Notes: generated from the sequence alone by a model not told the origin. A stretch of 64,000 nt of DNA from Candidatus Uhrbacteria bacterium GW2011_GWC2_41_11 (GCA_000996355.1 LCAH01000004.1:14501-78500); one strand, 5' to 3'; counted from the first letter of the stretch, positions 2,604 to 32,979 are shown. Program-made: numbers and translations.

Positions 2604-2624
2604 CCATTAGCCTCCGGAATTTTT

Positions 2625-3368
2625 ATGTTTTACGCTGTTTTGTATCAGCCGTTATTCAACCTCCTTATTTGGCTGTACAACATTATTCCGGGAATGGATC
2701 TTGGATTTGCTATTATTGCCATTTCTCTTGTTACAAAATTGGTTTTGTGGCCATTTTCGCATGTCGCTCTTAAATCTCAAAAATCCTTGCAGGAAATCCA
2801 GCCGAAACTTGAGGCTCTGAAGGAACAATTTAAAGATGATAAGGAAGGACTCACAAAAGCCATGATGCAGTTGTATCAAACGGAAAAAGTAAATCCGTTA
2901 TCTTCCTGCCTTCCTTTGCTTATTCAATTGCCTATTCTCTTTGCTCTTTACGCGGTTTTACGCGACGGGTTACGTGTAGACAGTTTGGTTCATTTGTATC
3001 CATTTATTCATAATCCAGGTTCCATCAATCCATTCTTTTTAAACTGGATTGATTTAGGTCAACCACATCTTGTGATGGCAATTGTGGCAGGAATATTGCA
3101 ATTCGTTCAAACAAAAATGCTCATGACTCAACGTCCGCCACGAGCGATTCGTAAAAAGGAGGGAGCCAAAGATGAAGATATGCTCACAGCGATGAACCAG
3201 TCCATGACATATATGATGCCAATTATGACGGTGGTGATAGGAGCATCATTGCCAGGTGGGTTGACGTTATATTGGATTGTCATGAATATTTTTTCCATTG
3301 TTCAGCAATTTTTCGTTTTGAAATCGCACAAAAAATCTGAGATATCTTCTCCTGTGATTTCACAGTAA
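2625..3368 (+). CDS. yidC: membrane protein insertase YidC (short form)
   Basis: Conserved YidC/Oxa1 core (LVTKLVLWPF, QPKLEALKEQFKDDKE, LQLPILFALY). At 247 aa it matches the short Gram-positive/CPR type. Confidence 0.85.
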   Translation: MFYAVLYQPLFNLLIWLYNIIPGMDLGFAIIAISLVTKLVLWPFSHVALKSQKSLQEIQPKLEALKEQFKDDKEGLTKAMMQLYQTEKVNPLSSCLPLLIQLPILFALYAVLRDGLRVDSLVHLYPFIHNPGSINPFFLNWIDLGQPHLVMAIVAGILQFVQTKMLMTQRPPRAIRKKEGAKDEDMLTAMNQSMTYMMPIMTVVIGASLPGGLTLYWIVMNIFSIVQQFFVLKSHKKSEISSPVISQ

Positions 3369-4337: not shown

Positions 4338-5644
4338 TGACTCTTTCTCGTCAAAATTTGGCGAATGGTTTTACGTATCTCGCCCTTTTTTTGCTGCCAT
4401 GGCAAACGCGGTGGATTTTTGCGCGTCTCAATTTGGGTGGTGAACCATGGGAGTATGGAGTGCTCAGTTTATACGCGGTGGAGATACTTATTTTCTGTGC
4501 CGTTCTTTTACGTGGAAGATTTCACTGGCCATTGAAAATGCATTCACTTATTTTTCCAGGAGGTATTTTTTTTGGCCTTTCGTTTATTTTCTCTTTTTTT
4601 TCTCTTGTTCCTATTCTTTCTTTTGTCACGCTTTTTCATACATTTTTTGCCTTTCTTCTGTTTCTTCTTTTGTTGGATGAACGTCTCTCTTTTTTTACAA
4701 GTCTTACATATTTTTTTTGTGGGTTACTTGTTCCTGTCTGTCTCGGATGGTTTCAAGTTTTGACTGGGACAAGTCCTGCCTCTACTTTTTTTGGACTTGC
4801 CGAACATATGGCCACAACACTCGGTGTTTCTGTTATTGAAACGAGTGCTGGACGGTTGATGCGTGCATACGGTTCTTTTTCTCATCCAAATATTTTTGGT
4901 GGTTTTTTAGCTGTGGCGGTTTTTTTTGCTAGTATCTTTCCTATTGTTTTTCAGAAGAAAAAAACGATTTGGTTTGTTCTTGCTGCTTTTCTGTCAAGCA
5001 CAACACTGATCGTAACGTTTTCTCGATCTGCTTGGGTGGCGATTGTAGTCAGTTTGATTTTATTTTTTCTTTTTGTGTGGTTTGAAAGAAAAGAATCGAA
5101 AAGATTTCATCGATCTTTTGGTGTGATGAGTTTTGTGTTGATTGGAGGATGCATTGCTCTTTTTGGGTTTCGTGATGCGGTTATGACACGTTTTAATTCC
5201 ACTGTCCGCCTGGAAGTGAAGTCTGTTTCAGATCGAGTCTTTGAATACGGAGATTTTCAAACCCTTTATTCGTCGTTGCATCCAATGCAATGGTTTTATG
5301 GAATAGGTTCTGGAACATATACGGTTGCTCTTGAACAACTGAATCCCGGATATTCCGTTTGGAACTACCAACCTATTCATAACACCGTTTTTCTTTTTTT
5401 GATTGAAAATGGATGGATCCTTTTTCTCATTGCAACCGTTTGGCTCGGAATGTATCTCAACTATTTTTTTAAATATCGTGTGCAAGGAGGAATTATTGGA
5501 ATCATTTTTTGCGTTTTATATGGAACAATTGCCTTATTTGATCATTATCTTTGGAGTTCCTGGAGCGGGATGGTGTTGATTGCCGTATCTGTGGGTTTTA
5601 GTTTGCGTTTTGTGCAAGAAAAAGAAAAAGAGAATAGCGGTTGA
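4334..5644 (+). CDS. O-antigen ligase (Wzy_C) family polytopic membrane protein
   Basis: About 10 TM helices with the central FSRSAW motif of O-antigen ligase/WaaL-like proteins. SD AGGAAGG lies 7 nt before ATG 4334. Confidence 0.7.
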   Translation: MMTLSRQNLANGFTYLALFLLPWQTRWIFARLNLGGEPWEYGVLSLYAVEILIFCAVLLRGRFHWPLKMHSLIFPGGIFFGLSFIFSFFSLVPILSFVTLFHTFFAFLLFLLLLDERLSFFTSLTYFFCGLLVPVCLGWFQVLTGTSPASTFFGLAEHMATTLGVSVIETSAGRLMRAYGSFSHPNIFGGFLAVAVFFASIFPIVFQKKKTIWFVLAAFLSSTTLIVTFSRSAWVAIVVSLILFFLFVWFERKESKRFHRSFGVMSFVLIGGCIALFGFRDAVMTRFNSTVRLEVKSVSDRVFEYGDFQTLYSSLHPMQWFYGIGSGTYTVALEQLNPGYSVWNYQPIHNTVFLFLIENGWILFLIATVWLGMYLNYFFKYRVQGGIIGIIFCVLYGTIALFDHYLWSSWSGMVLIAVSVGFSLRFVQEKEKENSG

Positions 5645-7694: not shown

Positions 7695-7753
7695 AAGATT
7701 TTTTTTCAAAAGAGGGTGGATTTCCACCCTCTTTTGATATACTGTACCTATCT

Positions 7754-8896: not shown

Positions 8897-9835
8897 ATGC
8901 CCAAAGCTTTTCGTCGTGCCTTGGTAACGGGTGGAGCTGGATTTATTGGCTCTCATCTTGTGGACAAACTCATTCGATGTCGCATGCAGGTATGTGTGGT
9001 TGATGATTTATCTTCTGGGGAACGTTCATTTGTAAATCCAAAAGCAGAATTTTTTCAGATGTCCATCAATGATCCAGAATTCTTTTTTTTGGTTCAACGC
9101 ATAAAACCGGATGTTATTTTTCATTTGGCAGCGCAAATCAATGTTCGATATTCGGTAAAAAATCCGCGACATGATGCCGAGGTGAATATTTTGGGAACCC
9201 TTGCTGTCCTTCAGGCAGCAAAAGAAAGCAATGTAAAAAAGATTGTGTTTTCTTCTTCAGGAGGAGCCATGTTTGGAAAAGGAAAGCCTCCTTATACGGA
9301 AATGGTTTCCCCAAATCCATTTTCTCCATATGGAATATCGAAACGCGCTGCGGAATTGTATTTTTTGCAAACACAAGCCTTGTACAATCTTCCATGTGTG
9401 ATTTTGCGTTATGCGAATGTATATGGACCGCGACAAGGAGCAAAAGGGGAGGCTGGGGTCATCTCGGTGTTTGCTCGTCGGATGCTTGCGGGTGGATCTG
9501 TCACCATGAATGGTTCCGGAAAACAAACAAGAGATTTTGTGTATGTCGATGATGTGGTTGCGGCAAATATTTTGGCAATGAAGTTTCCTCAGAGTGATCT
9601 TTTCCATATTGGAACAGGAAAAGAAACAAGCATTCTCACCCTCTATCGTGCCATGGAAAAATGTATGAATATTTCGCTTGCGTTGAATCATATCCCTCCT
9701 GTTTCAGGTGAAGTCATGCATTCTTCTTTGGATGCTCATCGAGCAAGGCGTGTTTTAAAATGGCAACCAACGGTGAAACTGGAAGAAGGACTTCAACGAA
9801 CAATTGCGTGGTTTAAAATGCAAGAAAAGAAATAG
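8897..9835 (+). CDS. NAD-dependent sugar epimerase/dehydratase (GalE-like)
   Basis: Rossmann motif TGGAGFIGSHL plus a YxxxK catalytic region. 312 aa. Confidence 0.85.
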   Translation: MPKAFRRALVTGGAGFIGSHLVDKLIRCRMQVCVVDDLSSGERSFVNPKAEFFQMSINDPEFFFLVQRIKPDVIFHLAAQINVRYSVKNPRHDAEVNILGTLAVLQAAKESNVKKIVFSSSGGAMFGKGKPPYTEMVSPNPFSPYGISKRAAELYFLQTQALYNLPCVILRYANVYGPRQGAKGEAGVISVFARRMLAGGSVTMNGSGKQTRDFVYVDDVVAANILAMKFPQSDLFHIGTGKETSILTLYRAMEKCMNISLALNHIPPVSGEVMHSSLDAHRARRVLKWQPTVKLEEGLQRTIAWFKMQEKK

Positions 9836-10644: not shown

Positions 10645-10661
10645 AAACCCAAACAAAGAAG

Positions 10662-11444
10662 GTGGTATACTATTTTCAAACTATGGATGATGTTGAACAG
10701 GAAGAACTGTCCAAGGCGCGGCAGAATCGTCGCACATTAACCTCTGAACAGCGGGTTGTCTTTGTGTTATTGATTTTTATTGGAATTCTTGGAACTATTT
10801 TTGGATTTCGTGCCATTCCTGCACATTTACGCCGACCGTTTGATGAACAATTGGCAAGCTATAAAGGTCCGGAGTTTTTAACAGAATCTGAACAAGAATC
10901 TCGGGAAGCCGAACGTCAAAAAACGTCGGATACAGATAAAGACGGTCTCAAGGATTATGATGAATTGTATGTTTTTAAGACGAGCCCTTATCTCACAGAT
11001 TCAGATTCGGATGGTTTTGATGATAAGACAGAGGTATATTCCGGAAATGATCCAAATTGTCCAACAGGAAAAAATTGTGGAACGACATTAGTGGAATCAT
11101 CAGAAGGAACAGGTTCAACATCTGCAGATGTTCCGGCTCTTCTAGCAAATATTTTAAGTGTAGATCCAACACGTTTTGAAAATACTTCGTTTCAATCTTT
11201 AGAAGACGTGCAAGGATTTTTTTCAAGCTTGAGTGCAGCAGAAGTTCGATCTTTACTTATTTCTCAAGGAATTCCAGCTCAAACAGTTGAACAATTAAGC
11301 GATGAACAATTACAAGAACTTTTACAAGCCTCGGTAGATGAAGCAAGTACTTCAGGTCAATTCGATTCGCTTATTCAATCATCTGGAGAAGGGGAGGTAG
11401 CTCCTTCTTCCGAATCTTCAAATCAAAACATTTCCACTGAATAA
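10662..11444 (+). CDS. membrane-anchored acidic protein with calcium-binding (TSP3-like) Asp repeats
   Basis: Single N-terminal TM helix, then DTDKDGLKDYDE and DSDSDGFDD repeats and a Ser/Glu-rich tail. It lies immediately upstream of the giant gene. Confidence 0.55.
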   Translation: MVYYFQTMDDVEQEELSKARQNRRTLTSEQRVVFVLLIFIGILGTIFGFRAIPAHLRRPFDEQLASYKGPEFLTESEQESREAERQKTSDTDKDGLKDYDELYVFKTSPYLTDSDSDGFDDKTEVYSGNDPNCPTGKNCGTTLVESSEGTGSTSADVPALLANILSVDPTRFENTSFQSLEDVQGFFSSLSAAEVRSLLISQGIPAQTVEQLSDEQLQELLQASVDEASTSGQFDSLIQSSGEGEVAPSSESSNQNISTE

Positions 11445-11450
11445 CTTGTT

Positions 11451-14400
11451 ATGCGTTTGTGGCATCCAGGCACACGGAAGATCATAAGTGGTTTTTTCCT
11501 TACCGGAGGATTTCTTTTTTCATTCACACTCTTTTTTTGGTTGTTAAAACGTCCAGTATTAGCTGATGATAGTGGAAGTGAAGGGGGTGCACCTGCAGCT
11601 GTTACAGTATCAGAAACATCTTCTGCCGCAGCAGAAGGAGTTTCTAATCCAGCTGTTGATCCAGCTGCTCCTGCAAAAGCTGCGACAAAAGTAATTGAGA
11701 AGACACGTAAACAGATGATTGTTCCCATGCTGAAAGCGGCTTTTATTACTATTATCATCAATGTCACTCAATTTGTTTTGGATCGATTGGCCTATGATGC
11801 AGCCGTGTGGGTCGCAAGTGGTGGTAAAGGAGAAACCCCTCTCTTTCACGCAGACGGGGCACAAAATGCATGGGAAAAATTCGGTTTAGACGTTGCCGGG
11901 GAGGCGTTTGGTTCTTTTTCCCAGTCTTTGAACGGATATTTGGATGGAAATTTCAATTTGTGTGCGCCAACCACTCCACAGATTCGTCTTGGTCTCCAGC
12001 TTGGTGTGAAGGGAGTGTATCAACCACCGAAACCGAAATGTGATTGGGAATCCATTCAAAATAATTGGTCTGGATTTGTACAAGGAGTCGTTGATAAATC
12101 CGAAAATTTTGATCCAAATGCTTATGTGTTGAATACGGTTGCAAAAGGTTTACAGCCTGGTCAGAATGCGCTCTCTTACTCTATTGCGACAAATATAAAG
12201 ATTCACGGCAAGGTTCTCGAAAAGAAGCAGAATTTATTTGCGGAATATCTCAAAAGTGGAGGATTTAAAAATGTGACTGATGTTGTGACCGGAGCTGTAA
12301 AAACGCCATCGTCTTTGGTACAAAATCAGCTTCAGACTCAATTAACAGAAACTCAACAAAAAGGACGGGAATTTTCTTTTACCGCAGCGATCAGTAATGC
12401 AGAGTTATGGCAGACAGTTGGACTCCATACTTTATCTGTTTTTTTTAATACGCTTCTTTCTCAAGGACTCCAGAAACTTTATAATGGACTTCTTCCATCA
12501 CAAGACATTGAATTTGATCCATTTAATGAACAGAGTGCAAACATCCGCGGTCGTGAAGCAGCTGCAGAAGAATTTGCAGGTCTTATTTCAACCATTCCTT
12601 CTGTTATTGATCAATACAATGTTTTAACTGAATTTGTCGTATGTCCCACGGCTCCGGCGGTACGTCAAATCAATAATTGTGTTTTAGATGCTTCGTTTGC
12701 GGAAGCAATTGTGCGTTCAGACACATCTGAATCCTTGACGGTTGCTCAAGCAATGGAAAATGGTTTGTTGCATGGAAGCTGGCCACTTTATCGTTCAGAT
12801 GATTTGACACATAATCAGGATTTATTCTGCCATACGTATGGATATTGTTATGGAAATTTAGTGAAATTGCGCAAGGCACGTATTCTTCCTGTTGGATGGG
12901 AATTGGCTGCTGAATCTCCCCAAAATAAAAGTTCGAATCCTGTAACGCTTGAACAAGTTGTTGCCGGATTTGAAGAATGTGACAGTGATGGAAAATTGAG
13001 TGCAGATCACCCATGGTGTCATTTGATTGATCCAAATTGGGTTTTGAAATATCCGAAAACACAATGCTTGGCTTCGGTTGTTGGGGAACAGCTTGTGAGT
13101 ACGCTTTCGATAGGTCGTTCCGGAACTTGTGTGGATACGCCAAGTTGTGTGAGTGAAAATGAGGATGGCATTTGTTCCGGGTATGGATATTGTGTGCGTG
13201 AAAAAAATACTTGGCGTTTTGATGGAGATGAATGTCCGGAACAGTTCGCATCCTGTCTTGCTTTTACTAATGCGGAAACAAGTGAAACAGGAGCCTGGCT
13301 TTTGAGTACTCTGGATTTTGGGGTTTGTTCTCAAGGAAATGCAGGATGCTTGTGGTATCGAACACAAAAACATTTGAATGATGGGGGAACACCGGATGAT
13401 AAAAGCGACGATACGTACGAATGGTTACCCGAAGACGACATTTTTGTGACTTCTGATCGAGAAAATGATGTTTTGACTTTCGATGTTGCAGGAAATCGGA
13501 CAAATCGCACGACCTATTCCTATGATACGGATGAAAATGGAATAGATGATCTTTCCTATGAAACGTATACATTTGAGGATCGAATGTATTTGAACAATCA
13601 AATTCAGGAATGTTCGGAATCCGAGGCGGGTTGTACAGAACTTTATCCAATTAGAGAAGGACTTTCCTTGAATATTTTACGAAATCCAAGTTTTGAGGAT
13701 GATGAAGATAAGAATCATTTGGCTGATTCTTGGGAAATTTTCGGGACCAAAGATGTTCATTATTCGTATGATGAAGAAGGATCAAATGCTTTTCATGGAA
13801 CAGATGCGTATAAGTTTGATGGAGGAACAGCAAGCCAATTGGCCATCCCTCTTCAACAGAATCAGTTTTATACGCTTTCCTTTTATGCAAAAGGAGTGAC
13901 GAGTGCGGCTTCGGCAACCGCTGCATTAAAATTTGTTGCTTCAGATAACACAGCGATTGATTTTACCGGATATACAACCAATTGTACTGTTGCTGGAGAT
14001 ACTGTGAGTTTACAAGCAAGTGAAATTGATACAGAGGATTTTGAGAGTTTTGACTGCGCATTTACCACCCCTATTTTGAACGATTCACGTTTAGGTATTG
14101 TGGCAACGCTGACGTTTAAAAATATGGCGGATGTTTATGTGGACGCCATACAGTTAGAAATAGGAGAAAATGCTTCAAATTTTCATGACAGATATAGTGA
14201 AAATAATCCGGATGTTGTTTACAATCGCGTGGCCCCGAGTTGGCTTGGATGTACGGGAAATGCAACAGATCCAAAAGAATGTGAAGATTATGCGACGTTC
14301 TGTTCTGCAACAGAGATTGGATGTTCTTTGTATACTCCAAAAGATGGAGATCCGAATGTTCCGGCTGTTTTGACGCAAACCGATCAATGTCCGGATGAAT

Positions 14401-17400
14401 GTGTCGGATATGCTGCCTTTAAACAGGAAGCAACTTCCTATGATGCAGAAGAATTTCCTGTGTATTTAATTTCAGATACAGCTGTTGCGTGCAGTGAACA
14501 GGAAGTTGGGTGTGATGAGTTTACCAATTTAGAAACAGAAGAAACACAAGCCTATTCAACTTTGCGTGCATGTGTGACTCCGGACATGATTTCTTCTGAG
14601 AACAATGCTGTTTTTTTCACTTGGCAGGGGTCGGATCTTACCGGATATCAACTCGTTTCGTATCAACTCCTTCGTTCTGATTTAACGGGAGGTGATATTA
14701 GTTATACGCAAGATACAGATGAAGATGGCACGTTTGATACAAAAGATTCTGGGTATACAGAAACGATTTTCAATGACACAACTCCAGAAGTTGCCCCTTG
14801 TACAAATTGGGATGTGACTTCTGAATCCAAACTTTCCTGTGTGGATGATGTGATTGTGTTGGCAGCTGATGATGGATGTAATGAACATGCAGATATTTTT
14901 ACAGAACCGGATTGCCGCGAATTTTATGATGAACTTGGAAATATTCATTATCGTCGGTATTCAGAAACTATTTCTGTCCGGGAAGAATGTACAGCTTTCC
15001 GTAAAACAGATGCGAATCAGACCGATTGTGATGCGTCTGGTGGATATTGGACAGCAGGCGGGGAATGCCGGTACTTTGCTTGGCCTGCAGAAAGTACGTC
15101 TTGTTCTGAAACAGCCGTCGGGTGTCGTTCGTATACAGGAGGAGCTGGTCGAAATTCTACAACGGTGTATGAAGATTTATTCGAGAATGGACAATTGGTT
15201 GCATATGAAACAGCGAGTGGAACAACAATTTCGCTTAGTAACGAATCTGTTGCCACTGATGGACACTCAATGCGGGTTGTTATGGGCTCTTCGAGTTCGC
15301 TTTCAACCTTCCAGATTTATTTGAACACATCAGATAAAACGATGACATACAATAAAGATGATTCAGGTACTTGTGGAGATACGAATGGGGACGGAGTCTC
15401 TGACAAATCTGATCGAAACATATCGAACAACGGATGTGCAATAGATGCAGATGGTGATGGAACTTTTGATTGTACCATTGCTGATGGTGATAATTCTTGT
15501 GGAGCATTGGATGATCAACTTGTCCAGGGAAAGAGTTATATTCTTTCTTTCTGGGCAAAAGGAACTGGCAGTATCAAAACAGATTTTGTGACACAAAGTG
15601 GAACAGGAACGGTGTATGATCTTGTTGATCCAAATGATGGAGAAGGAGATTCAGATTCACTTAGTCTTGATGGAAGTTGGCAATTGTATGAACTCGGTCC
15701 GCTTGATACCACAGACATGACGGATTTTGATGATACGGCCATTCTTCGCTGGAGTGCGGGAGTTGGGACAACTTTTTATCTCGATAATATTGTCCTGAAA
15801 GCTGTTGAAGAAAATGTCACCCTGATTAAAGATTCCTGGGTCACACCTTCCATATGCGACAAAACTCCTGCCGGAGCAGATACTCCTCAGTATTATTTAG
15901 GTTGCGAGGCCTATACGGACCAGAATGGAGATACTGTTTCTGTGTATCAATTCAACAATCTTTGTTCAGAGTCTGCGGTCGGATGCGCATCTTTTTATCA
16001 AACACAAAATTCCACTTCGCCGTATACACAAGTTTTTAATGGAACCTGTTATATATCTGTTGATAAAGATGGAGATGGAATCTTTTCGTTCCAGGCTTTA
16101 AATTTGGAAGAAGATATTGTGTCTCAAGCCACTGACTGCGAATTGGAAGGAGAAACGGTTTGTACAATCCTTTCTGGAAGCAATCAGTGTCAGTTTACTC
16201 TTGACCGCGAATTACCAATTCCTTATCCAATGAATATTGTCCTTGGTCCTGAAACAGTTGTTGTTCCAGCAGATAAAGTTGTTTACCTGATTGAAGATGA
16301 CGAAACAACATGCACAGAATCCAATGCGGGTTGTACGGAGGTTGGTATTCCAACGTTTAGTCAAGATCATACAGCTGTGGAGAGTCTCGTCTCTACCTAT
16401 ATTTTGAATCTTCCTGATACGTATGCAGATATTCTGTGTTCAAATGAGGCACTTTTTTGTGCAGAATGGGCATCCACAGAAAATGGAAATTATTATTTCA
16501 AAAATCCAGGTGATCAAGCTTGTGAATATAAGACAGGTGTTTCTTTGAACGGAGTGAGTTATAGCGGATGGTTCCGAACCGGAACAACCCAGTTTTGTTA
16601 TGGAACAGGCTCATGTTCAGGTAACTCATCTCTTTCCTGTACGAATGATGCAGATTGTATAAAGACAGATGCAGGAACGTGTAATGTAACCACTGGTTCC
16701 TACATTCAAGGCGGAGACTATTCAGGTATTTGGTTTAATGGAGATACGAGATATGAAGGATGGACAGGCGAATGTGAAAGTCAATATGATTTGTGTACGG
16801 AGTTTGTCGATCCTGTTGATACAAGTGAAGGAGAACGTGATAGCGGAACCTCGTATTTTTTCTTGGATAATTCCAGTTTGAATGAAGAAACACTTGCTGC
16901 TTCAGAACGTTGCAAAGGTCAGGTAAGTCTCACTTCCGGTTGTGCCTTGTTTGATGATCTTGTAGATCAGGAACTCACGTACTCTGCCTCCCCAAGCTAT
17001 CTTGTTTCTGAACATGCAGATCTTTTCTTTGGAGAAAGTCCGCGTTCGCTTCAAAATCCGATTTCTTGCCCAGAGAACGGAACATTTACTCTCACAACTG
17101 GAATAAAAGTCGATGTCTGTGCCAATCGGTGTGCCTATGAAGTGAATACAGACGAAGAGCTTGAAAATGTGGCTGCCATCGAAGGTCCAAGTGATCAGAT
17201 AACAACAATTTTTTTCGGTCAGGCATGTTTGACAAATCTTGATTGTCCCATGGCTGAGGATTCGCTTGGAAACGAAGTGGAAGGTTCCTGTTTTAATTTG
17301 AAAACAGATCAGAATGGCGATGGAGTGATTGACACAACGTTTGATGCAGATGCAAATGGAAGTCTTGATGCGAGTTATGATGCGAATGGAGATGGGGTGG

Positions 17401-20400
17401 TTGATTATCTTTTTGTCAATGATACAAATCGCATGTTAAAAGTTTCACGTGATCGTGCATGTGCTGAATGGCTTGCGTGTGAAAGTTCTCAGCGAACGTG
17501 GGATGAAAATACAGCTTCTTGGCGTTCTATTTGTGAGCAGGTAAATCTTTGTAATGAATTTAGTGCGATTGGTGAATCCGGATTCTGTTCCCATTGGGTC
17601 GAGGAAGATCCAATCGTGTTTGACGCGAGTAAATATTCTGCCCGAGACGTTTCTTGGTACGGACTCGACTATTCTGGATATGCAATTCCAAATCAGCTTC
17701 CACTTGAATTTTATACGCAGGCAAACGTGAATCCAGATCGGTACTGTGCGACCGATGCAACAGGTCTTCATCCTCAGATGACTTCTGTTGGAGCATTTGT
17801 GGCATGTGCAACAGATGCAGATTGTACGAATAGTTCTTTTAAAACATGTACTGAGAGTACACCGGATTTTCGATTGGCCTATGTGGCTGGTTCATGCGAC
17901 GAAGAGGATGGACAATCATGTATGGTGGGATTTTGTCAAAATTCCGGTGAATCGTGCAACGGAAACGAAGAATGCAATAATGGAGAAAATTGTATTATTG
18001 GATATTGCGAAACAACGGATGTAGATGCTTCCTGCGGTAAGGATACAGACTGTATTTCTGGTTTTGAATGCAAAAATAGCATTTGTGTGGATACAAAAAC
18101 CGGATCAGGAGATGGACGAGAAACGTGTACAACAATTGCTGATTGTACAGTCAGTGGGACAGAAGGTACGGTGACTGAATGTGTAACAGGGGCATTGGCA
18201 AAAGTGGGGGCGTGTTATAACAGCTCTTGTTTGATTGGAGTTGATGGACAACCATTTGTAAAAGATGATGCAGAATCGCAATCTTGTCGCGGGTATCCGG
18301 AATCAAGTTCTCCGTTTCCAACAAAAGTAGTAAAAGAGTGGATGGATCCTGACAAATTGGTTGATGGTGCCAGCGATGCGGATCTTCTTTCTTTGGAACA
18401 AGTGGATCATAAAGAAGAATTAGATGCAGTTCCATATAATTATGTGAACGGTTTTTCCGGATCTTCAACCTGTGCACCAACGATGTCTGGAGCGGATGGA
18501 GCTGTTGTTTCTGATGATTGTACTTGTTCGTATCTAAAGGCAAATTATGGTAATGGTTTTTTCCAGCGTTACTATCCGACCGGAACCGCATCGGAAGAAA
18601 TGTTATCCGGTATTTGTTCAGGCGGAGATAAACCAGGTGCATCCTGCGTTTCAAATGAAGACTGTGGTGCCGCGGAAAGCGGAGCTATGTGTTATCACAT
18701 AACCCGTCAGGATCGCATGATCGGCTGGCCAGGATTCTGTGTAGAACGAGACAGTTCCATTCAATTGTATGGAAGTACGAGCGAAGCGGATCGTGCGTGT
18801 CTTACCTGGTTACCTGTGGATCAGCTTGAGGGATCAACAGATATTTATGCGAAATATACAGGAGCCGGTTATCCGTTGCAGGAAACGTTTTATTGTACAG
18901 AGATTGGATATTATGTTGATCTGTATCCGACCGGTGCGCGGTTTGATGATGAAGGAAGTGTGACTTCGATTGATTACGCGTGCGCGCAAACAAACAATGC
19001 TACAGGCTGTGATTTTGGTGAATATGGAGATGATTCCGATGAAAATATTGGATGTCAAGAAAATGTCTTTTGTCCAAAAGGATACGTGGCTATGCTTGGA
19101 TATTGCGATAATGGAGGCGGAACAACAGAAAATACAAATGCGGGAACCATGTGTAAAAGCGATGGCGAGGATGAAAAACAAATAGACGGAGCACAAGATT
19201 CTCAGGATGATTGTCCATTTTTCTGCATTCCGACAGGAAGCAGACATATGGAAGGAAGTGATCTTGGAAAGAGTTGTGATACGGATTTGAAAACAACCAA
19301 CTATCATACAAGATCCTATAACAACACAAAAATGTACGAAGCAGGTGATTTGGGATATGTGCCAAATTTTGATGGAGAAAGCGATTTCAAGAAATTTGAG
19401 GATTGTGTTGTTCGCGGTATACCGTTAGGAGATGATTCTGTCTATGAAACAGACTACGTGGATGGATTGTTTGATGGTTTTAGCTCAGGTGGATACGGAT
19501 ACAAACACACAGATGCAGAAGGAAGCGGAGAGGGGGATGAAGAAATTTATGCTTTTGGCATTGCTCACCGTGCGGTTGGTGCTACGATCGGAGGGTGTAC
19601 GAGTTATTCCATTTCGCATGGAGGTGGAAGAGGGTCTCCTCCTCCTACATTTTATAAGGGAGGAGAATCATGTAACACCGATACAGACTGTCCGGGATAT
19701 AATAATGGTTCAATGTGTGAAACAAGTCCTGAGACGGATAGCGGTTCCATGCAGGAATATCTTGGGTGTTACCAAGTGACGCAAGTTTCTACAACTTCTC
19801 AGACAGATGGAAACAAAGCCTGGACGAATCGTACTTGGGATGGAAATCCTAATATGTTTGAAACATTCACTTCAGGTGATTTTTCGGATGGATCAAAAGG
19901 GTATGGATATGGATCATTGGATGAACCTGTGGAAGCCGGTCGTGCGCTGTTTGGAGAATATTATCAACAGGATGGAGATTATTGGCGTTTAGAAAATTTT
20001 GGGGATGATTCTTGGCCTCTTCCCGTTGGTGTTTGTGATTCATCATCACTTACTTCTGGAGCTGTTGGTCTTGCCGCCTCTTCCCCTGATGATATGGCTG
20101 TCTGTGCGAATAAATATTTCTATCCAAACAAAGCGCAATATATTTATGATGGAACATTGACCAAATCCATTTTACCGGATGATCAGGCACCGTATGCACT
20201 TGCGGCCCCATATGAAGATTTGGATCGTAACCCGGATGAGGAAGACGCGATTCTCGGTTCTATTTCCGCGGACAATTTTGATGATTTTGGTGTGAGTTCG
20301 AATGACAATCCTGTGAGTATCACGCAATTGCTTACCCAACTGTACGCCAAGATATACGGTTTATGGCGATATGATTGGGATGCGAGTGGTGGTGGATATA

Positions 20401-21266
20401 AAAAAGAGGAACTGGATGCGAAAATTTCGAGTTTTGCATCCTATAGTGATGGAGAATATGATATTTCAAATGTGGGAGATACACATGGATCAGGTGCAAA
20501 CCTGGGTGAACCCACTGTTCCACAAATTGCCTCGGTTCAAGAATGTTTTGGAAGTGAATGTGTGGAAGGGGATACCGGATCATTTTCTGTGAATGAAATA
20601 GATAATGGAACTGTAGAAGGAAGCGGAGGAAACAAGCATACTTCACTTAAGTTTTTTGCCTGGGCAAATTCGAACCAGATGCCGATTCGTAATGTGATTG
20701 TGGACTGGGGTGATGGCAAGCGTGAAGGATCTTACGAGGGCTTTGCCTGGCCGCTTGATAGCCAATCCGGAAGTATTGCCAAAGATAACTTTTTCAAAAA
20801 TCATCGCGGGCTTGAAAAAGAAAATGAATCCAAGTGTGAAGCAGTAGATGAATGGGGACTGATAAGCGCCACATGCGAAACCACTTACTTCAGTTTTGAG
20901 CATGATTATCAATGTTCAGAAAATAAAGTGAAGGAAATGCAAAATGGAAATATTCTTTGTGAATATGCTTCGGATGGCAGTGGACGACTTGTGAATTCAC
21001 CATGTACAGGTGGAGATGTAGCTAATGCTGCAGACAAGTGTGTATTTCAGCCACGTATATTTGTAAAAGATAATTGGGGCTGGTGTACCGGATTCTGCAA
21101 TTCGAATCCGGATGATGCAACGGATGGATGCTATGGAAGTGAGTGCAACTTTACGTATTGTCCGAGTTATAAGAAATCTGAAAAATGTTCGGATATCGAT
21201 GGAAATATAACAAATCCTTGGGTAAATTTTGGTGGGTTGATTCTTTTGGATTGGAAAGGTGATTAA
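11451..21266 (+). CDS. giant (3271 aa) secreted/surface Cys-rich protein
   Basis: One uninterrupted 9.8-kb ORF with an N-terminal signal/TM segment. The module C-[ST]-E-x3-G-C-x2-[FY] recurs (ECSESEAGCTELY, FCSATEIGCSLYT, ACSEQEVGCDEF, SCSETAVGCRSY, LCSESAVGCASFY, TCTESNAGCTEVG). It has many DxDxDG calcium-binding loops and a C-terminal Cys-knot-like region. No minus-strand ORF in the interval has an RBS or homology. Confidence 0.8.
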   Translation: MRLWHPGTRKIISGFFLTGGFLFSFTLFFWLLKRPVLADDSGSEGGAPAAVTVSETSSAAAEGVSNPAVDPAAPAKAATKVIEKTRKQMIVPMLKAAFITIIINVTQFVLDRLAYDAAVWVASGGKGETPLFHADGAQNAWEKFGLDVAGEAFGSFSQSLNGYLDGNFNLCAPTTPQIRLGLQLGVKGVYQPPKPKCDWESIQNNWSGFVQGVVDKSENFDPNAYVLNTVAKGLQPGQNALSYSIATNIKIHGKVLEKKQNLFAEYLKSGGFKNVTDVVTGAVKTPSSLVQNQLQTQLTETQQKGREFSFTAAISNAELWQTVGLHTLSVFFNTLLSQGLQKLYNGLLPSQDIEFDPFNEQSANIRGREAAAEEFAGLISTIPSVIDQYNVLTEFVVCPTAPAVRQINNCVLDASFAEAIVRSDTSESLTVAQAMENGLLHGSWPLYRSDDLTHNQDLFCHTYGYCYGNLVKLRKARILPVGWELAAESPQNKSSNPVTLEQVVAGFEECDSDGKLSADHPWCHLIDPNWVLKYPKTQCLASVVGEQLVSTLSIGRSGTCVDTPSCVSENEDGICSGYGYCVREKNTWRFDGDECPEQFASCLAFTNAETSETGAWLLSTLDFGVCSQGNAGCLWYRTQKHLNDGGTPDDKSDDTYEWLPEDDIFVTSDRENDVLTFDVAGNRTNRTTYSYDTDENGIDDLSYETYTFEDRMYLNNQIQECSESEAGCTELYPIREGLSLNILRNPSFEDDEDKNHLADSWEIFGTKDVHYSYDEEGSNAFHGTDAYKFDGGTASQLAIPLQQNQFYTLSFYAKGVTSAASATAALKFVASDNTAIDFTGYTTNCTVAGDTVSLQASEIDTEDFESFDCAFTTPILNDSRLGIVATLTFKNMADVYVDAIQLEIGENASNFHDRYSENNPDVVYNRVAPSWLGCTGNATDPKECEDYATFCSATEIGCSLYTPKDGDPNVPAVLTQTDQCPDECVGYAAFKQEATSYDAEEFPVYLISDTAVACSEQEVGCDEFTNLETEETQAYSTLRACVTPDMISSENNAVFFTWQGSDLTGYQLVSYQLLRSDLTGGDISYTQDTDEDGTFDTKDSGYTETIFNDTTPEVAPCTNWDVTSESKLSCVDDVIVLAADDGCNEHADIFTEPDCREFYDELGNIHYRRYSETISVREECTAFRKTDANQTDCDASGGYWTAGGECRYFAWPAESTSCSETAVGCRSYTGGAGRNSTTVYEDLFENGQLVAYETASGTTISLSNESVATDGHSMRVVMGSSSSLSTFQIYLNTSDKTMTYNKDDSGTCGDTNGDGVSDKSDRNISNNGCAIDADGDGTFDCTIADGDNSCGALDDQLVQGKSYILSFWAKGTGSIKTDFVTQSGTGTVYDLVDPNDGEGDSDSLSLDGSWQLYELGPLDTTDMTDFDDTAILRWSAGVGTTFYLDNIVLKAVEENVTLIKDSWVTPSICDKTPAGADTPQYYLGCEAYTDQNGDTVSVYQFNNLCSESAVGCASFYQTQNSTSPYTQVFNGTCYISVDKDGDGIFSFQALNLEEDIVSQATDCELEGETVCTILSGSNQCQFTLDRELPIPYPMNIVLGPETVVVPADKVVYLIEDDETTCTESNAGCTEVGIPTFSQDHTAVESLVSTYILNLPDTYADILCSNEALFCAEWASTENGNYYFKNPGDQACEYKTGVSLNGVSYSGWFRTGTTQFCYGTGSCSGNSSLSCTNDADCIKTDAGTCNVTTGSYIQGGDYSGIWFNGDTRYEGWTGECESQYDLCTEFVDPVDTSEGERDSGTSYFFLDNSSLNEETLAASERCKGQVSLTSGCALFDDLVDQELTYSASPSYLVSEHADLFFGESPRSLQNPISCPENGTFTLTTGIKVDVCANRCAYEVNTDEELENVAAIEGPSDQITTIFFGQACLTNLDCPMAEDSLGNEVEGSCFNLKTDQNGDGVIDTTFDADANGSLDASYDANGDGVVDYLFVNDTNRMLKVSRDRACAEWLACESSQRTWDENTASWRSICEQVNLCNEFSAIGESGFCSHWVEEDPIVFDASKYSARDVSWYGLDYSGYAIPNQLPLEFYTQANVNPDRYCATDATGLHPQMTSVGAFVACATDADCTNSSFKTCTESTPDFRLAYVAGSCDEEDGQSCMVGFCQNSGESCNGNEECNNGENCIIGYCETTDVDASCGKDTDCISGFECKNSICVDTKTGSGDGRETCTTIADCTVSGTEGTVTECVTGALAKVGACYNSSCLIGVDGQPFVKDDAESQSCRGYPESSSPFPTKVVKEWMDPDKLVDGASDADLLSLEQVDHKEELDAVPYNYVNGFSGSSTCAPTMSGADGAVVSDDCTCSYLKANYGNGFFQRYYPTGTASEEMLSGICSGGDKPGASCVSNEDCGAAESGAMCYHITRQDRMIGWPGFCVERDSSIQLYGSTSEADRACLTWLPVDQLEGSTDIYAKYTGAGYPLQETFYCTEIGYYVDLYPTGARFDDEGSVTSIDYACAQTNNATGCDFGEYGDDSDENIGCQENVFCPKGYVAMLGYCDNGGGTTENTNAGTMCKSDGEDEKQIDGAQDSQDDCPFFCIPTGSRHMEGSDLGKSCDTDLKTTNYHTRSYNNTKMYEAGDLGYVPNFDGESDFKKFEDCVVRGIPLGDDSVYETDYVDGLFDGFSSGGYGYKHTDAEGSGEGDEEIYAFGIAHRAVGATIGGCTSYSISHGGGRGSPPPTFYKGGESCNTDTDCPGYNNGSMCETSPETDSGSMQEYLGCYQVTQVSTTSQTDGNKAWTNRTWDGNPNMFETFTSGDFSDGSKGYGYGSLDEPVEAGRALFGEYYQQDGDYWRLENFGDDSWPLPVGVCDSSSLTSGAVGLAASSPDDMAVCANKYFYPNKAQYIYDGTLTKSILPDDQAPYALAAPYEDLDRNPDEEDAILGSISADNFDDFGVSSNDNPVSITQLLTQLYAKIYGLWRYDWDASGGGYKKEELDAKISSFASYSDGEYDISNVGDTHGSGANLGEPTVPQIASVQECFGSECVEGDTGSFSVNEIDNGTVEGSGGNKHTSLKFFAWANSNQMPIRNVIVDWGDGKREGSYEGFAWPLDSQSGSIAKDNFFKNHRGLEKENESKCEAVDEWGLISATCETTYFSFEHDYQCSENKVKEMQNGNILCEYASDGSGRLVNSPCTGGDVANAADKCVFQPRIFVKDNWGWCTGFCNSNPDDATDGCYGSECNFTYCPSYKKSEKCSDIDGNITNPWVNFGGLILLDWKGD

Positions 21267-21483
21267 ATTATCTGGGGCTCTGCCCCAACATCCTGACCTA
21301 TTTTCTTGTGCTTGCCCAAAGAAAATGGGTGAAAAGAAAGGATATTCCGAAGCTTTAGCAAAGGTGGATCGGATAGACCTCGCTCGGGCTTCGGGGAAGG
21401 ATTGGATTGGTGTTTGAATTGTGAATGGTAATATAGAAAATTTTGATAAAAAAATTCAGGCAGTGATGTCTGAATTTTTTGAA

Positions 21484-21511
21484 CAAAAAAAGCGACGGGA
21501 GTTTCCGTCGC
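21484..21511 (-). terminator. Rho-independent terminator for the minus-strand lipoprotein gene
   Basis: Stem GCGACGG/CCGTCGC with a 6-nt loop. On the minus strand it is followed by T7 (the A-run at 21484-21491 on +). Confidence 0.55.
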
Positions 21512-21517: not shown

Positions 21518-22183
21518 TTATTCGTCGAGGCTGAGAATCATATCTGAGACCATCGTATCATCGACATCGAATCGATAGTAGTAGATAGTCTTGAGATCAT
21601 CCTCGATTTCTCCTTTGATATAACCACCATCATCAAGAACACCATAGAAGGTGTTTAATGAAATGATGGCATCAACACTGAATCCATCAAGGACAAGTTC
21701 GTCGAAACCATCGTTATCAATGTCGTAGATGATCGTTGTGATTTTCCATTCCCAGTCATCTTCGTCAAGATAGATTTCATCTGGTGCCAGTCCGAACTGG
21801 TCAGACGCCCAGGATGCCTTGTAGATCGCCCCATTCTCGGAAACCTTTGCCTCGAGCTCGACAGCTCGATAGTTTGTCTTTTGTCCGAGCACCTCATATG
21901 TTCCGGACTCAGAGACGGTAACCAAGCACTCGATCCCGGCCTTGCAGGACGAGACGAGTTCATCGTTTACCACGAACCCTTCGACCTGAATCGGAGCCGT
22001 GATGTTGATCTTCGCCGAGAAGGCGGTCGAAGTCGAATCATCATCGTCTCCCGACTGGGTCGGGGTGGGGGTGAGGTTGCCCACCTGATCGTCATCGTCA
22101 TTCGCATTGCCACCATCGAAGAGCCCGCACCCTCCCAAAAAGAGGGCGAGGGTCAGAAGGAACCACTTTCCTGTGGTCTTCAT
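21518..22183 (-). CDS. lipoprotein, GC-rich and probably horizontally acquired
   Basis: Start placed at MKTTGKWFLLTLALFLGGC, a lipobox of type LGGC. The acidic Asp-rich body uses GC-rich codons (GAC/CTC/GTC), unlike the neighbouring genes. Confidence 0.6.
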   Translation of the reverse strand: MKTTGKWFLLTLALFLGGCGLFDGGNANDDDDQVGNLTPTPTQSGDDDDSTSTAFSAKINITAPIQVEGFVVNDELVSSCKAGIECLVTVSESGTYEVLGQKTNYRAVELEAKVSENGAIYKASWASDQFGLAPDEIYLDEDDWEWKITTIIYDIDNDGFDELVLDGFSVDAIISLNTFYGVLDDGGYIKGEIEDDLKTIYYYRFDVDDTMVSDMILSLDE

Positions 22184-22649
22184 AGGTAAACCCTCCAAAT
22201 GCCCGCTGGTGCGGGTGCTATCTCCGGGTGACTCGAACGAGTCTTTTCGCAAAAGAGCGCGACGGTCTCCCTCTCCGTTGACCGCGTTTCAGTTTAGAGA
22301 AACGCTTTGAAACACGAATATGTTTCAACACCTTCCCCCAAAGTCAATTCTAGTAAGCCACAAAAGGATTGTTTTTGTCAAGCAAAATGGACGGAATTTA
22401 TAAAATTTGTTTATTTATCCACATTTTTGACTTTCTTTTTTCTGACATTTTGTCACAATACTTTCTGCGGATGACAAACTGTTCTTTGGGTTGTTCTTTC
22501 TTCTTCACAGACGAATCTTCTAGAAAAACTTGATCCTGTTTTGAAAAATGGGGGATTAAGTTCTCGTTACAGGAGACGTGTGTGCATTGTGTTGGAAATC
22601 GGTGCAGTCCGATATTGCACAATGTTTTCCATAGAAGGAGGAATAAACC

Positions 22650-24829: not shown

Positions 24830-26938
24830 ATGAAACGTTCTTTTGTTGCTTTTTGTTTCTTCATGATTCTGGAATGTTTGACTGTTTGTCATCCCATGTT
24901 CCAGACACAGGAAGAAGAAAATCTCTCCCATTCATTAAACATTTCTTCTGATCAGGGCGGCGGTGACGAATCTGTTTTGCATCTGCCTTTTGCAAAAGAC
25001 GATACGATTTTGTGTACGCAAGGAGCCTATGGTTCGTACAGCCATAATTATACGTCGACCAAGAAAGATTTAGACTTTGACACAAGCAATAGTGTTGATG
25101 AAGAAATCTACGCACCTGCAACCGGAATGGCTTATGTGCACACAGAAAGTGCAACGAGTGGTTTTGGGTACCATGTGAATATCGACTTGGGAGATGGAAC
25201 ATATGTTGTTCTCGGACACTTTAAGGAAATTTTTATTGGGAATGAATCAGAAGTTGCGGCAGGTGAACTTCTCGGATATGAGGGATGTACAGGAAGCTGT
25301 TCCGGTGACCATGTTCATATTGGTCTTCATGCCGGAGACGCGACACTTAAGGCTGAATACGGGGAATCCATTGATGTCTCGTATTATTCACAGGACACGA
25401 CGAATAAAGGAGAGTTTGAGAATATTGCAAGTATAGATTTTATTTGTGGAGTCGGAGATGAGAATGGAACAGAAGGACATTGGTATCGTTCAGCTCTTCC
25501 GGTTACTCTTTGGCATCCGAATGGAACGCTTGTCAAAACGCCAAATAGCACAGCCGTGTATCTTTTGGAAAATGGAGAAGCCAAATGGTTTGTGACCCAG
25601 GATATTTTCTGGAGTTACGAATATTCATTTAGTAACACGGTCTTAATTTCAGACGAAGAATTGAGTTGTTATGCGAGGGGAACTGACATAAACAAAGAAA
25701 CGTTTATGGATGCTGTTTCAGATCCAGATGGAAAGCTATGGTTTATTGTGGGATCTGCGACTGCTTCTGATCGATACCGTATACGAGTGAAAACCACGGC
25801 ATGGGATGCGGTTTTGGCATCCTGGGGACTTATGTATACATCCTCAGATCCTCCTCAGGTTGTTCAGAACCCGAATCCTTATTTGACGGATTGGCCTGTT
25901 GAAGACGGATATCTCCATTTTCGTGATGGTTCGATTCTCAAGGAAGAATCTCATTCGGATGTGTATGTGATATCCGATCAAGTTGCTCTTCCTGTACGAG
26001 ATTGGGAAACATATCTACTTCTTGGGTTGTATGATCTGGAAGTACTCGTTGTTCCAGACGGATCTGTTTTAAATGTACAAGAGCAGGTAGGGAGTTGTTC
26101 TTCAGGTATGTGGTGTCTGGATCGTGAGGCAGTAACGACCTGTGGTGGTGGATTAGAACTGGGAACCGGAGAAGAAGGCGGATCTGGAGACGGGGAAGTG
26201 ATAAAAGAAGAAACTCCGAGTCCATTCCCGTGCACAGATACGGATGTGGATGGATTTTGCAATACAGGAACAGACGGAGAAGATTGTTGGGATAAAAATG
26301 CATCTGTGTATCCTGGAGCGGAAGAGATATGCGGAAATGGAATTGATGAGGATTGTAGTGGAACAGATGCACTTTGTAATTCTCTCGAAATAGACACAGA
26401 CGGAGACGGAGTTTCGGACGCAAAAGACAATTGTCCATTTCACGACAATCCTGAACAGGACGACACAGATGCAGATGGGCTTGGAGATGCCTGTGACGCA
26501 GAAATATTCACCCCTGTTCCGACTTTCGTGTCGGAAGATGAAACAGAAAATGAACATGAAGAACCAAATACTGATTCCTCTGTCCTTCATGTTTCTTGGA
26601 CAGCGCCGTTTAGTGAAATCATGAATCTGATTACCATTTCAGGTGAATATCGTTTTGCAAACGGTTCGTATGGTTTTACATGGCGAGAACTTCTTTCGAC
26701 ACTGAGCGAACCATTAATCGATTATGAGATAACAGGCGTTTCTTTGGGAGACCAATTTCGTTTTTCCATTGAATTCGTAAACGAATATGCGCAAACAAGC
26801 TGGTCTTGTATTGGTCCATATCCTCCAGGATCACTTCAAGGAACGCCGGAAGCGGACGTGGACAATCTTCCACTTATGGTCGAAATGACAGATGATCCAA
26901 TATCAGACGGATGTGGATTGATCGTCGAAATTCTTTAA
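24830..26938 (+). CDS. secreted M23 (LytM-type) peptidoglycan peptidase with TSP3 and Cys-rich repeats
   Basis: Signal peptide, then the M23 catalytic motifs HVNIDLGDG and GYEGCTGSCSGDHVHIGLH. Cys-rich repeats follow (CTDTDVDGFC, DCSGTDALC), then TSP3 calcium-binding repeats (DTDGDGVSDAKDNCP, DDTDADGLGDACD). Confidence 0.8.
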   Translation: MKRSFVAFCFFMILECLTVCHPMFQTQEEENLSHSLNISSDQGGGDESVLHLPFAKDDTILCTQGAYGSYSHNYTSTKKDLDFDTSNSVDEEIYAPATGMAYVHTESATSGFGYHVNIDLGDGTYVVLGHFKEIFIGNESEVAAGELLGYEGCTGSCSGDHVHIGLHAGDATLKAEYGESIDVSYYSQDTTNKGEFENIASIDFICGVGDENGTEGHWYRSALPVTLWHPNGTLVKTPNSTAVYLLENGEAKWFVTQDIFWSYEYSFSNTVLISDEELSCYARGTDINKETFMDAVSDPDGKLWFIVGSATASDRYRIRVKTTAWDAVLASWGLMYTSSDPPQVVQNPNPYLTDWPVEDGYLHFRDGSILKEESHSDVYVISDQVALPVRDWETYLLLGLYDLEVLVVPDGSVLNVQEQVGSCSSGMWCLDREAVTTCGGGLELGTGEEGGSGDGEVIKEETPSPFPCTDTDVDGFCNTGTDGEDCWDKNASVYPGAEEICGNGIDEDCSGTDALCNSLEIDTDGDGVSDAKDNCPFHDNPEQDDTDADGLGDACDAEIFTPVPTFVSEDETENEHEEPNTDSSVLHVSWTAPFSEIMNLITISGEYRFANGSYGFTWRELLSTLSEPLIDYEITGVSLGDQFRFSIEFVNEYAQTSWSCIGPYPPGSLQGTPEADVDNLPLMVEMTDDPISDGCGLIVEIL

Positions 26939-27030
26939 ATGCAACCTCTCGTTTTTTTTCGAGAGGTTTTATCTTTTTTATTTCTCCAACGCGACGTCGC
27001 TCTGAATTGTGTGCATGTGCTATACTATTT

Positions 27031-29964: not shown

Positions 29965-29994
29965 ATGAATGTCTTTTGAAAAAGGTCTTAGGAT

Positions 29995-31752: not shown

Positions 31753-31844
31753 CAGCAGAATTTTTCTAGAATGAAGATTTAGATGAAAAAAATTCTGCAT
31801 GAGACTGACGTGTGTAGATATGATAGAATATTTAGAACCAAAGT

Positions 31845-32973: not shown

Positions 32974-32979
32974 TATATT

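Follow-up and report, generated by a model that had tools for sequence, protein, structure and literature searches.

The subject of this study is a giant gene of an ultrasmall groundwater bacterium, carried on a 64,000-nucleotide stretch of DNA from Candidatus Uhrbacteria bacterium GW2011_GWC2_41_11 (GCA_000996355.1; LCAH01000004.1:14501-78500; this whole stretch is referred to as the window, and positions are counted from its first letter). The gene (11451-21266, plus strand) encodes a cysteine-rich protein of 3271 amino acids (aa) that carries a predicted export signal, is conserved end to end across hundreds of species, and is almost always preceded by a small gene for a predicted membrane protein, here called the partner (10683-11444, plus strand). 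We lean, with modest confidence, towards the view that the two products form a cell-surface complex in which the giant protein serves as a rigid, glycan-binding tether or attachment protein in cell-cell contact.

The giant gene is a single open reading frame (ORF) without an internal stop codon, as seen in both the ORF listing and the translation, and it begins 6 nt past the stop codon of the partner gene. An earlier reading of the DNA made from the sequence alone (the sequence-only reading) had described such an uninterrupted frame and had set its start at 10662; this coordinate is the start of the upstream partner ORF (10662-11444), and the giant gene itself starts at 11451. The encoded protein contains 138 cysteine residues (4.2%, against a mean of 1.09% in the other 35 ORFs of the window), is rich in Gly, Ser, Asp and Thr, and is very acidic, with a net charge of about -322. 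It is sequence-identical to the entries KKR87251.1, KKR98169.1 and UniRef100_A0A0G0VBA4 from Candidatus Uhrbacteria, which are publicly annotated only as "hypothetical" or "uncharacterized" protein. The source is thus a bacterium that belongs to the candidate phyla radiation (CPR), in keeping with the ultrasmall, episymbiotic type of organism that had been surmised. The rest of the window also has the look of a small CPR genome, with genes for NusA, YidC, a Wzy_C-like protein, GroEL, a release factor, an epimerase, KsgA, SerRS, LeuRS and ComEC, and one tRNA.

The 90%-identity cluster to which the giant protein belongs comprises seven sequences, each exactly 3271 aa long, from NCBI, ENA, JGI and Logan assemblies; these are independently assembled copies that derive from at least seven assemblies. 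Because this cluster holds seven copies of identical length, the concern that the frame might be broken by frameshifts on re-sequencing does not hold. An assembly artefact, a pseudogene or a chance ORF is a practically negligible explanation: nothing was found in its favor, the gene recurs, intact and in one length class, across independent assemblies as well as hundreds of species, and its cysteine residues are under strong purifying selection.

Relatives of the giant protein were sought with a degenerate pattern in one genome per GTDB species, and 344 species genomes were found to encode one. Among the best 80 of these 344 genomes the labels are overwhelmingly Candidatus Uhrbacteria, Patescibacteria or Parcubacteria; titles that read "uncultured Gammaproteobacteria" among the relatives appear to be placeholder names. 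In the scanned loci, 50 orthologous genes are present as complete reading frames without interruption, with lengths of 2918-3474 aa. When a profile covering the first ~1100 aa of the giant protein was used for an exhaustive HMMER search, 1642 cluster representatives (50% identity) were returned at E<=1e-3 and 1185 at E<=1e-30; most of the top 150 are 2600-3900 aa long. A few related loci (L001, L048, L068 and L027) carry the giant gene split into two adjacent ORFs (for instance 2019 and 955 aa at positions 1748-10680 of L001), which may represent assembly or sequencing frameshifts or genuine lineage-specific pseudogenization.

The 51 aligned sequences are collinear throughout, and their pairwise identity has a median of 40%. 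Conserved blocks (aa 400-640, 900-1050, 1150-1250, 1450-1500, 1600-1900, 2000-2100 and 3050-3271) are interspersed with indel-rich segments (aa 1-100, 650-700, 1300-1350, 1950-2000 and especially 2500-3000). The last of these, at aa ~2500-3000 (18948-20450), is the most variable region of the protein, with an identity to the window protein of 0.07-0.28 and a gap fraction of up to 0.75. Judged by these alignments, the giant protein is no free repeat array: it has several domains in collinear order and has been conserved by vertical descent, and the distribution of its relatives marks the gene as real and the family as old. Several other origins of so large a gene were considered and rejected: the viral contigs searched held no relatives of the giant protein, which speaks against a phage origin, and a self-BLAST of the window revealed no DNA-level or tandem repeat touching the giant gene, which speaks against tandem-repeat expansion. 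A role as target of a diversity-generating retroelement was dismissed as well, since no repeat pair involving the giant gene was found and a scan of the window ORFs of at least 150 aa, which covered all but a few of them, showed no reverse transcriptase.

The N-terminus of the giant protein has the features of a signal peptide (aa 1-38; 11451-11564) with a hydrophobic core at aa 10-33 and a predicted cleavage site that reads ...PVLA|DD, and all listed ortholog N-termini possess a comparable basic-hydrophobic-AxA leader. The C-terminus has neither a transmembrane (TM) helix nor a sorting signal. A hydrophobic helix at aa 87-114 was considered as a second TM segment and rejected, as it falls below TM grade in 42 of 50 orthologs.

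No residue of the family comes close to cysteine in conservation: 119 of the 138 positions (86%) are conserved at >=90% in the 51-sequence alignment, followed at a distance by Trp (39% of positions conserved at this level), Pro (31%), Gly (23%) and Arg (23%), with Asp at 10%. When the first 45 residues are removed, the number of cysteine residues ranges from 122 to 156 and is even in 51 of 51 orthologs; the chance of even parity in all of them is 2^-51. Because the count is even throughout, every cysteine of the mature giant protein is probably engaged in a disulfide bond (~69 bonds), and the simplest reading of the parity would be that cysteine residues are gained and lost in pairs. A polypeptide with all of its cysteines in disulfides would be folded outside the cytoplasm, and an extracellular location of the giant protein, as the sequence-only reading had proposed, is strongly indicated because the orthologs combine a signal peptide and AxA site with an even cysteine count. 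Perfect cysteine parity of this kind is a clean signature of a fully oxidized extracellular structure, and it raises a question of cell biology, namely how a minimal cell without a periplasm correctly makes 60-80 disulfides per polypeptide.

A short cysteine-containing module recurs in the giant protein. It had been described as C-[ST]-E-x3-G-C-x2-[FY] in at least six copies, at 13.6, 14.3, 14.5, 15.1, 16.0 and 16.3 kb. All six positions are real copies, with a further, seventh one at 13.3 kb; the full pattern is present in only three of them (mean of 0 in 500 shuffles of the giant protein), and the pattern without its last part, C-[ST]-E-x3-G-C, in five (aa 721, 1014, 1218, 1505 and 1621; shuffle mean 0.004). 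The core C-x5-G-C adds aa 626 and 951 and so reaches seven copies against a shuffle mean of 0.49. At each of the seven sites, which occupy fixed orthologous positions, the C, G and C do not vary across orthologs, whereas the conservation of the serine and glutamate is just 0.1-0.9 per copy, so that C-x5-G-C and not CSExxxGC is the true signature. With a hidden Markov model (HMM) derived from 353 instances, exactly seven copies are detected in the giant protein, and the other ORFs of the window contain no match. The consensus of these instances consists of a hydrophobic/aromatic strand, 3-5 residues and [S/A]-x-x, then C-[S/T]-[E/A]-x-x-[V/A]-G-C, and finally x-[E]-[Y/F]-[T].

The seven modules are situated at aa 617-640 (13299-13370; CSQGNAGC at aa 626), aa 713-735 (13587-13655; CSESEAGC at aa 721), aa 943-968 (14277-14354; CSATEIGC at aa 951), aa 1004-1029 (14460-14537; CSEQEVGC at aa 1014), aa 1208-1235 (15072-15155; CSETAVGC at aa 1218), aa 1498-1521 (15942-16013; CSESAVGC at aa 1505) and aa 1611-1638 (16281-16364; CTESNAGC at aa 1621), all on the plus strand. 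Comparison of 100-aa slices of the family alignment with hhalign gave a probability of 94% for the modules at aa 1014 and 1621 and of 25-63% for the others, so that the copies are, on profile comparison, detectably homologous to one another. Because no DNA-level repeats accompany them, the duplications read as ancient. AlphaFold, applied to aa 696-1250, places the modules at aa 1014 and 1218 in parts with a predicted local distance difference test (pLDDT) value of about 85-94 and draws each as two strands joined by a loop that makes one helical turn between the cysteines; those at aa 721 and 951 lie in low-confidence parts of the same model. A Cys-Cys bond inside each C-x5-G-C module is presumed. 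The recurring module is matched by no Pfam or NCBIfam model. The idea of a repeat grammar outside any known family is thereby borne out as regards the family, and revised as regards the repeat, which does not expand or contract and occupies seven fixed positions.

Two larger domains of the giant protein belong to a recognizable family. The whole protein, 15 orthologs and ten overlapping pieces of 270-400 aa were compared with Pfam, and the only family found was CBM_4_9 (PF02018), a family of carbohydrate-binding modules (CBMs); NCBIfam returned nothing above threshold. With the whole protein, PF02018 scored 37.8 bits against a gathering cutoff of 25.9 bits, with the best stretch at aa 741-845, and the family was matched in 12 of 15 orthologs. 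The corresponding beta-sandwich (aa ~741-910; 13671-14180) was modeled by AlphaFold2 as a jelly-roll CBM fold at aa 745-910 with a pLDDT of about 90, and its best Foldseek match is 2zey (CBM16; E 3.8e-8, TM-score 0.73), followed by CBM61, CBM4-2 and CBM22 structures. A second domain of this type, with a variable Cys/Asp-rich insert, occupies aa ~1250-1455 (15198-15815). The match of its own piece to PF02018 (E 0.004) is below threshold by itself; the family profile places it with CBM4 (1gui, E 7e-4), and hhalign relates it to the first domain with a probability of 84-86%. A search of the family profile against all PDB sequences found only CBM16 for the first domain and CBM4 for the second, and the window protein alone matched no PDB sequence. 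The modules at aa 721 and 1218 directly precede the two beta-sandwiches. Both domains had escaped the sequence-only reading. They make up about 10% of the giant protein, so that, on these searches, roughly 90% of it lies outside any described family.

No match to cadherin, Big, FN3, PKD, SLH or LPXTG models was obtained with the whole protein, the 15 orthologs or the ten pieces, and the family is in this respect distinct from the well-described adhesins with which it might have been confused. Likewise, no Pfam match to the repeat families of polymorphic toxins (Rhs-YD) was seen, and the Myxococcus cysteine-rich repeat and DUF4215 gave no NCBIfam or Pfam match at E<=1.

The remaining regions are distinguished by conservation and predicted structure. 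Following the signal peptide, a cysteine-poor region (aa ~73-345; 11667-12485) is predicted to form long alpha-helices (pLDDT 50-77). The most conserved block of the protein (aa ~405-535; 12663-13055), which includes YGYCYGNLVKLRKARILPVGWELAA and HPWCHLIDPNWVLKYP, was modeled confidently (pLDDT 82-94) as a small alpha/beta domain and has charged residues that are invariant. The model of aa 36-700 has a mean pLDDT of 55 and leaves the chain outside of the long helices and the aa 405-535 domain unmodeled; Foldseek found no PDB match with E<1 for this N-terminal model. Stacked small disulfide knots had been placed at the C-terminus; the sequence concerned, SCGKDTDCISGFECKNSIC, is located at aa 2194-2212, 67% along the protein, within a cluster of C-x5-C-x5-C-x4-C units (aa 2119-2260; 17805-18230) in which nearly all cysteines are >=90% conserved and for which no Pfam or NCBIfam match was found. 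The actual C-terminal region (aa ~3030-3271; 20538-21263) is conserved and contains cysteines and the motifs VDWGDG, NHRGL, DNWGWCTG and NPW[IV]N[FY]DG; it matches no family, and its last 240 aa are conserved and non-polymorphic across orthologs. The VDWGDG motif is reminiscent of PKD domains, without HMM support.

The sequence-only reading had cast the protein as calcium-binding, with dense DxDxDG loops. In the window protein these loops are indeed enriched: the pattern D-x-[DN]-x-[DN]-G occurs eight times against a shuffle mean of 0.57. However, every one of them lies in an alignment segment that is gapped in 30-98% of orthologs, and the number of loops per ortholog varies from 0 to 8. The example that had been singled out, DADANGSLDASYDANGDGVVDY, corresponds to aa 1965-1986 (17343-17408), an acidic lineage-specific insert with three DxDxDG-like loops that is missing in 76-98% of orthologs. 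With Pfam, the giant protein shows no RTX, cadherin or TSP3 match, and EF-hand models reach an E-value of 0.68 or worse. Hence, from the alignment, the loops are lineage-specific acidic insertions and no family-defining property. That the giant protein is a calcium-dependent repeat adhesin of the RTX or cadherin type, as first proposed, would fit the enrichment of the loops and the very acidic composition; we consider it very unlikely in view of their absence from most orthologs, the missing HMM matches and the lack of DNA-level or tandem repeats, and as a family property this reading is, by sequence comparison, largely refuted. Repeats of a calcium type are a conserved feature of the partner, to judge from its alignment, and not of the giant protein.

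The partner gene, which had been noted as a membrane-anchored acidic neighbor, encodes a protein with 18% Asp and Glu and one strong hydrophobic helix (aa 25-56, numbered from 10662). The mechanically called ORF starts at the GTG codon at 10662 (260 aa); the ATG codon at 10683 (253 aa) is the more likely start because it follows a sequence resembling a ribosome-binding site (aaggtgg, 10659-10665) and because the resulting N-terminus (MDDVEQ...) matches the MDE/MDD starts of the orthologs. An alignment of 19 partner orthologs reveals a common layout that opens with a basic N-terminal stretch, short and predicted to be cytoplasmic, and a single TM helix; these are followed by an RPF..Q.A.Y.G motif, two DxDxDG-x-D-x-x-E repeats, the conserved loop NPNC-x5-C, a variable linker and, at the C-terminal end, a helical motif. 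Within the repeats, D83, D85, D87, D91, D93 and E94 and, in the second copy, D106, D108, D110, G111, D114 and E117 are invariant in the 19 orthologs. The TSP3_bac model (PF18884) matches 12 of the 19 at E<=0.1 (best E 6.3e-9); the window partner scores 14.4 bits, under the 25-bit cutoff.

The association of the two genes is close to absolute. In 78 of 81 loci, and in every one of the 50 loci of the full-length set, the gene directly upstream of the giant gene is a partner homolog, with gaps of mostly 1-33 bp (6 bp in the window). The order KsgA-partner-giant is kept in a Falkowbacteria locus, in which the giant protein is 27% and the partner 33% identical, and in the locus of P0003. Further upstream, KsgA is syntenic in 73 of 81 loci, the epimerase in 62, the release factor in 59 and GroEL in 51; the downstream side of the giant gene exhibits no conservation within the available flank (~3.5 kb). 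Among the syntenic upstream genes are those for an O-antigen-ligase-like Wzy_C membrane protein (4301-5644, plus strand; 36/81 loci) and for the NAD-dependent sugar epimerase/dehydratase (8897-9835, plus strand). These two gene products may make a surface glycan that is relevant to the CBM-like domains.

In the complex that we envisage, the giant protein would be exported via Sec, lose its signal peptide and, once outside the cell, fold into a chain of numerous small domains held by ~69 disulfide staples in which every cysteine is paired. The seven strand-loop-strand modules of ~25 residues would act as disulfide-clamped connectors between the larger domains and would render the chain rigid and resistant to shear and protease. 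Because the signal peptide would be cleaved and the giant protein possesses no anchor of its own, it would most plausibly be kept at the cell surface by the co-translated partner, a putative type II membrane protein whose exposed part bears the two invariant thrombospondin-type-3 repeats, which are predicted to bind calcium. The two lectin-like beta-sandwiches would bind glycans of another cell (host or prey) or polymers of the cell envelope. A complex stapled, anchored and glycan-binding in this manner would constitute a rigid tether that withstands protease and shear.

Several points weigh against this proposal. CBM-type jelly rolls can be purely structural, the N-terminal model is of low confidence, and only gene order points to an interaction of the partner with the giant protein. 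The gene resides in a conserved housekeeping neighborhood (GroEL, release factor, epimerase, KsgA) and has evolved collinearly, and a core envelope component therefore fits better than a fast-evolving, host-specific adhesin. Moreover, an enzymatic or other activity could be hidden in the giant protein because ~2700 aa have neither a structural nor a family assignment.

The first of the alternatives is a self-directed envelope scaffold, an S-layer-like or wall-associated lattice whose beta-sandwiches bind the glycopolymer of the cell's own surface. S-layer proteins are typically acidic and typically poor in cysteine; the very acidic composition of the giant protein is in line with such a role, as are its conservation in hundreds of species, its collinear evolution and the conserved upstream genes for housekeeping and envelope-sugar functions (the epimerase/dehydratase and Wzy_C), whereas its cysteine content is not. 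No SLH or other wall-binding domain was detected by the HMM searches, and the 500-aa variable region at aa 2500-3000 would better suit an outward-facing, partner-specific surface. We regard the scaffold as a reasonable possibility, though well short of an even one. Distinctly unlikely, in our assessment, is a secreted lytic or degradative enzyme or toxin in which conserved blocks such as aa 405-535 are catalytic or membrane-active and the CBMs target the wall of prey or host. CBM4/9/16 modules, the class to which the PDB matches of the first beta-sandwich belong, are normally appended to glycoside hydrolases, and the highly conserved, confidently folded aa 405-535 domain with its invariant charged residues and lack of a structural match, the long N-terminal helices, and an M23 peptidase gene downstream of the giant gene would all be compatible with such an activity. 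However, no hydrolase, peptidase or toxin family was found in the 15 orthologs or the ten pieces, the family profile has no PDB sequence relatives except CBMs, the perfect cysteine parity argues against a catalytic free cysteine, and the C-terminus is conserved, unlike that of polymorphic toxins.

A bolder version of the tether proposal, which we rate as doubtful, is that the cassette builds a lineage-defining extracellular organelle of Uhrbacteria and Falkowbacteria, a disulfide-stapled stalk of ~100 nm that contacts and possibly breaches host cells. If such a stalk existed, it would be composed mostly of undescribed folds (the C-x5-G-C connector, the aa 405-535 domain and the long-helix N-terminus) and would be the principal host-contact device of these ultrasmall cells. 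CPR genomes are typically near 1 Mb in size; in a genome of this order the 9.8-kb giant gene would take up about 1%. To our knowledge, this patescibacterial branch has no cultured representative.

Giant surface adhesins are generally built from tandem arrays of recognizable repeats (Big, cadherin-like, RTX) of variable copy number and are poor in cysteine. The giant protein described here differs from them in that it has no tandem array or DNA repeats, a fixed domain order and an exceptional, apparently fully paired cysteine complement. It shares with them (RTX and Bap/Ebh-type proteins and the giants of Omnitrophota; bioRxiv 10.1101/2023.11.21.568195) the size class, export, acidic composition, modular beads-on-a-string build and a presumed role in cell-cell contact. 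Proteins with PF02018 domains (CBM4, CBM9, CBM16 and CBM22) resemble the giant protein through the two domains that match by HMM and by predicted fold; in the giant protein, however, no glycoside hydrolase is attached, each domain is preceded by a C-x5-G-C module and has a conserved disulfide (C845-C869 region), and the second one carries its Cys/Asp-rich insert. The partner, in turn, is related through its two invariant repeats to bacterial TSP3 proteins (PF18884; OmpA-family proteins and Myxococcus MtsD and CglD), and it gives weak NCBIfam matches to MtsD and CglD through these repeats. It differs from TSP3 proteins as a small, single-pass membrane protein with only two repeats of putative calcium-binding function, and an equivalence to MtsD or CglD was rejected at a score of 21 bits against a cutoff of 800 bits.

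The closest precedent by description is a set of large cysteine-rich extracellular proteins of Candidatus Peribacter riflensis, which average 1655 +/- 751 aa with about 7% Cys, carry signal peptides, are without functional annotation and have been proposed to serve in attachment (PMC4736985). The likeness extends to CPR origin, large size, signal peptide and cysteine richness. The Peribacter proteins are multi-copy, clustered and strain-variable, with weak similarity to Myxococcus Cys-rich repeats (PMC4736985), whereas the giant protein occurs once per locus examined, in the same neighborhood, is collinear in hundreds of species, has a dedicated partner and shows no similarity to the Myxococcus repeats by NCBIfam.

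Our literature search found no description of this giant-protein family, only a general note on Cys-rich CPR proteins (PMC4736985). The sequence is already public, albeit unannotated, and the kind of protein is known because large Cys-rich exported proteins have been noted in Peribacteria (PMC4736985). The present family differs in its core-gene-like conservation, its dedicated partner gene, the C-x5-G-C connector and the perfect cysteine parity. A very large, core-conserved, export-directed family with an obligate small partner, represented in 344 GTDB species and called "hypothetical" wherever it is named, is thus brought to attention, together with several conserved sequence blocks that have no family or fold assignment. 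The two lectin-like domains, the partner ectodomain and conserved epitopes offer handles for experiments.

Beyond the giant gene, a GC-rich hairpin with T-runs on both strands was recognized by pattern match at 21492-21511, between the giant gene and the convergent ORF 21518-22252; it is probably a bidirectional terminator. Near-perfect short palindromes are present at 2549-2581, 7706-7737, 21441-21511 and 55604-55637, where the NusA, GroEL and giant genes end or just beyond, and past ORF 55102-55587; they are probably intrinsic terminators. Downstream, ORF 24830-26938 (plus strand; 702 aa) combines the M23 peptidase domain mentioned above with a MopE-type putative metal-binding motif, and 12 other loci have a homolog downstream of their giant gene. 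With 17.9% Asp and Glu against 4.0% Lys and Arg and with 3% Cys, its product is, by composition, probably another exported disulfide-containing protein. It is followed on the same strand (26911-35073) by ORFs of 1017, 585 and 226 aa without family match and by a 697-aa ATPase with TraG P-loop, AAA_10 and HerA-like domains (VirB4/TraG-like), a gene arrangement that may represent a type-IV-secretion-like or conjugative cluster. A functional link between the giant protein and the VirB4-like cluster was rejected in a weak test, as the cluster was not found in the ~3.5 kb downstream flank of other loci.

A type I restriction-modification operon spans 38553-45706 (plus strand), with HsdM at 38553-39605, HsdS at 40958-42076 and HsdR at 43313-45706; a RelA/SpoT-domain gene (39934-40968) and a Fic/DOC gene (42154-43308) are interleaved with them. 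The GC content of this region (0.32-0.37, against ~0.41) is the lowest in the window, which suggests an acquired defense island. The ComEC-like competence protein is encoded by two plus-strand ORFs that overlap by 136 nt, one with Competence and DUF4131 domains (56917-58503) and one with a metallo-beta-lactamase domain (58368-59390); the arrangement may be due to a frameshift, a programmed split or a start of the second ORF that was called too far upstream. Finally, ORF 35649-36368 encodes a protein with a phosphoribosyltransferase domain and 5.9% Cys, which we take to be ComF-like.

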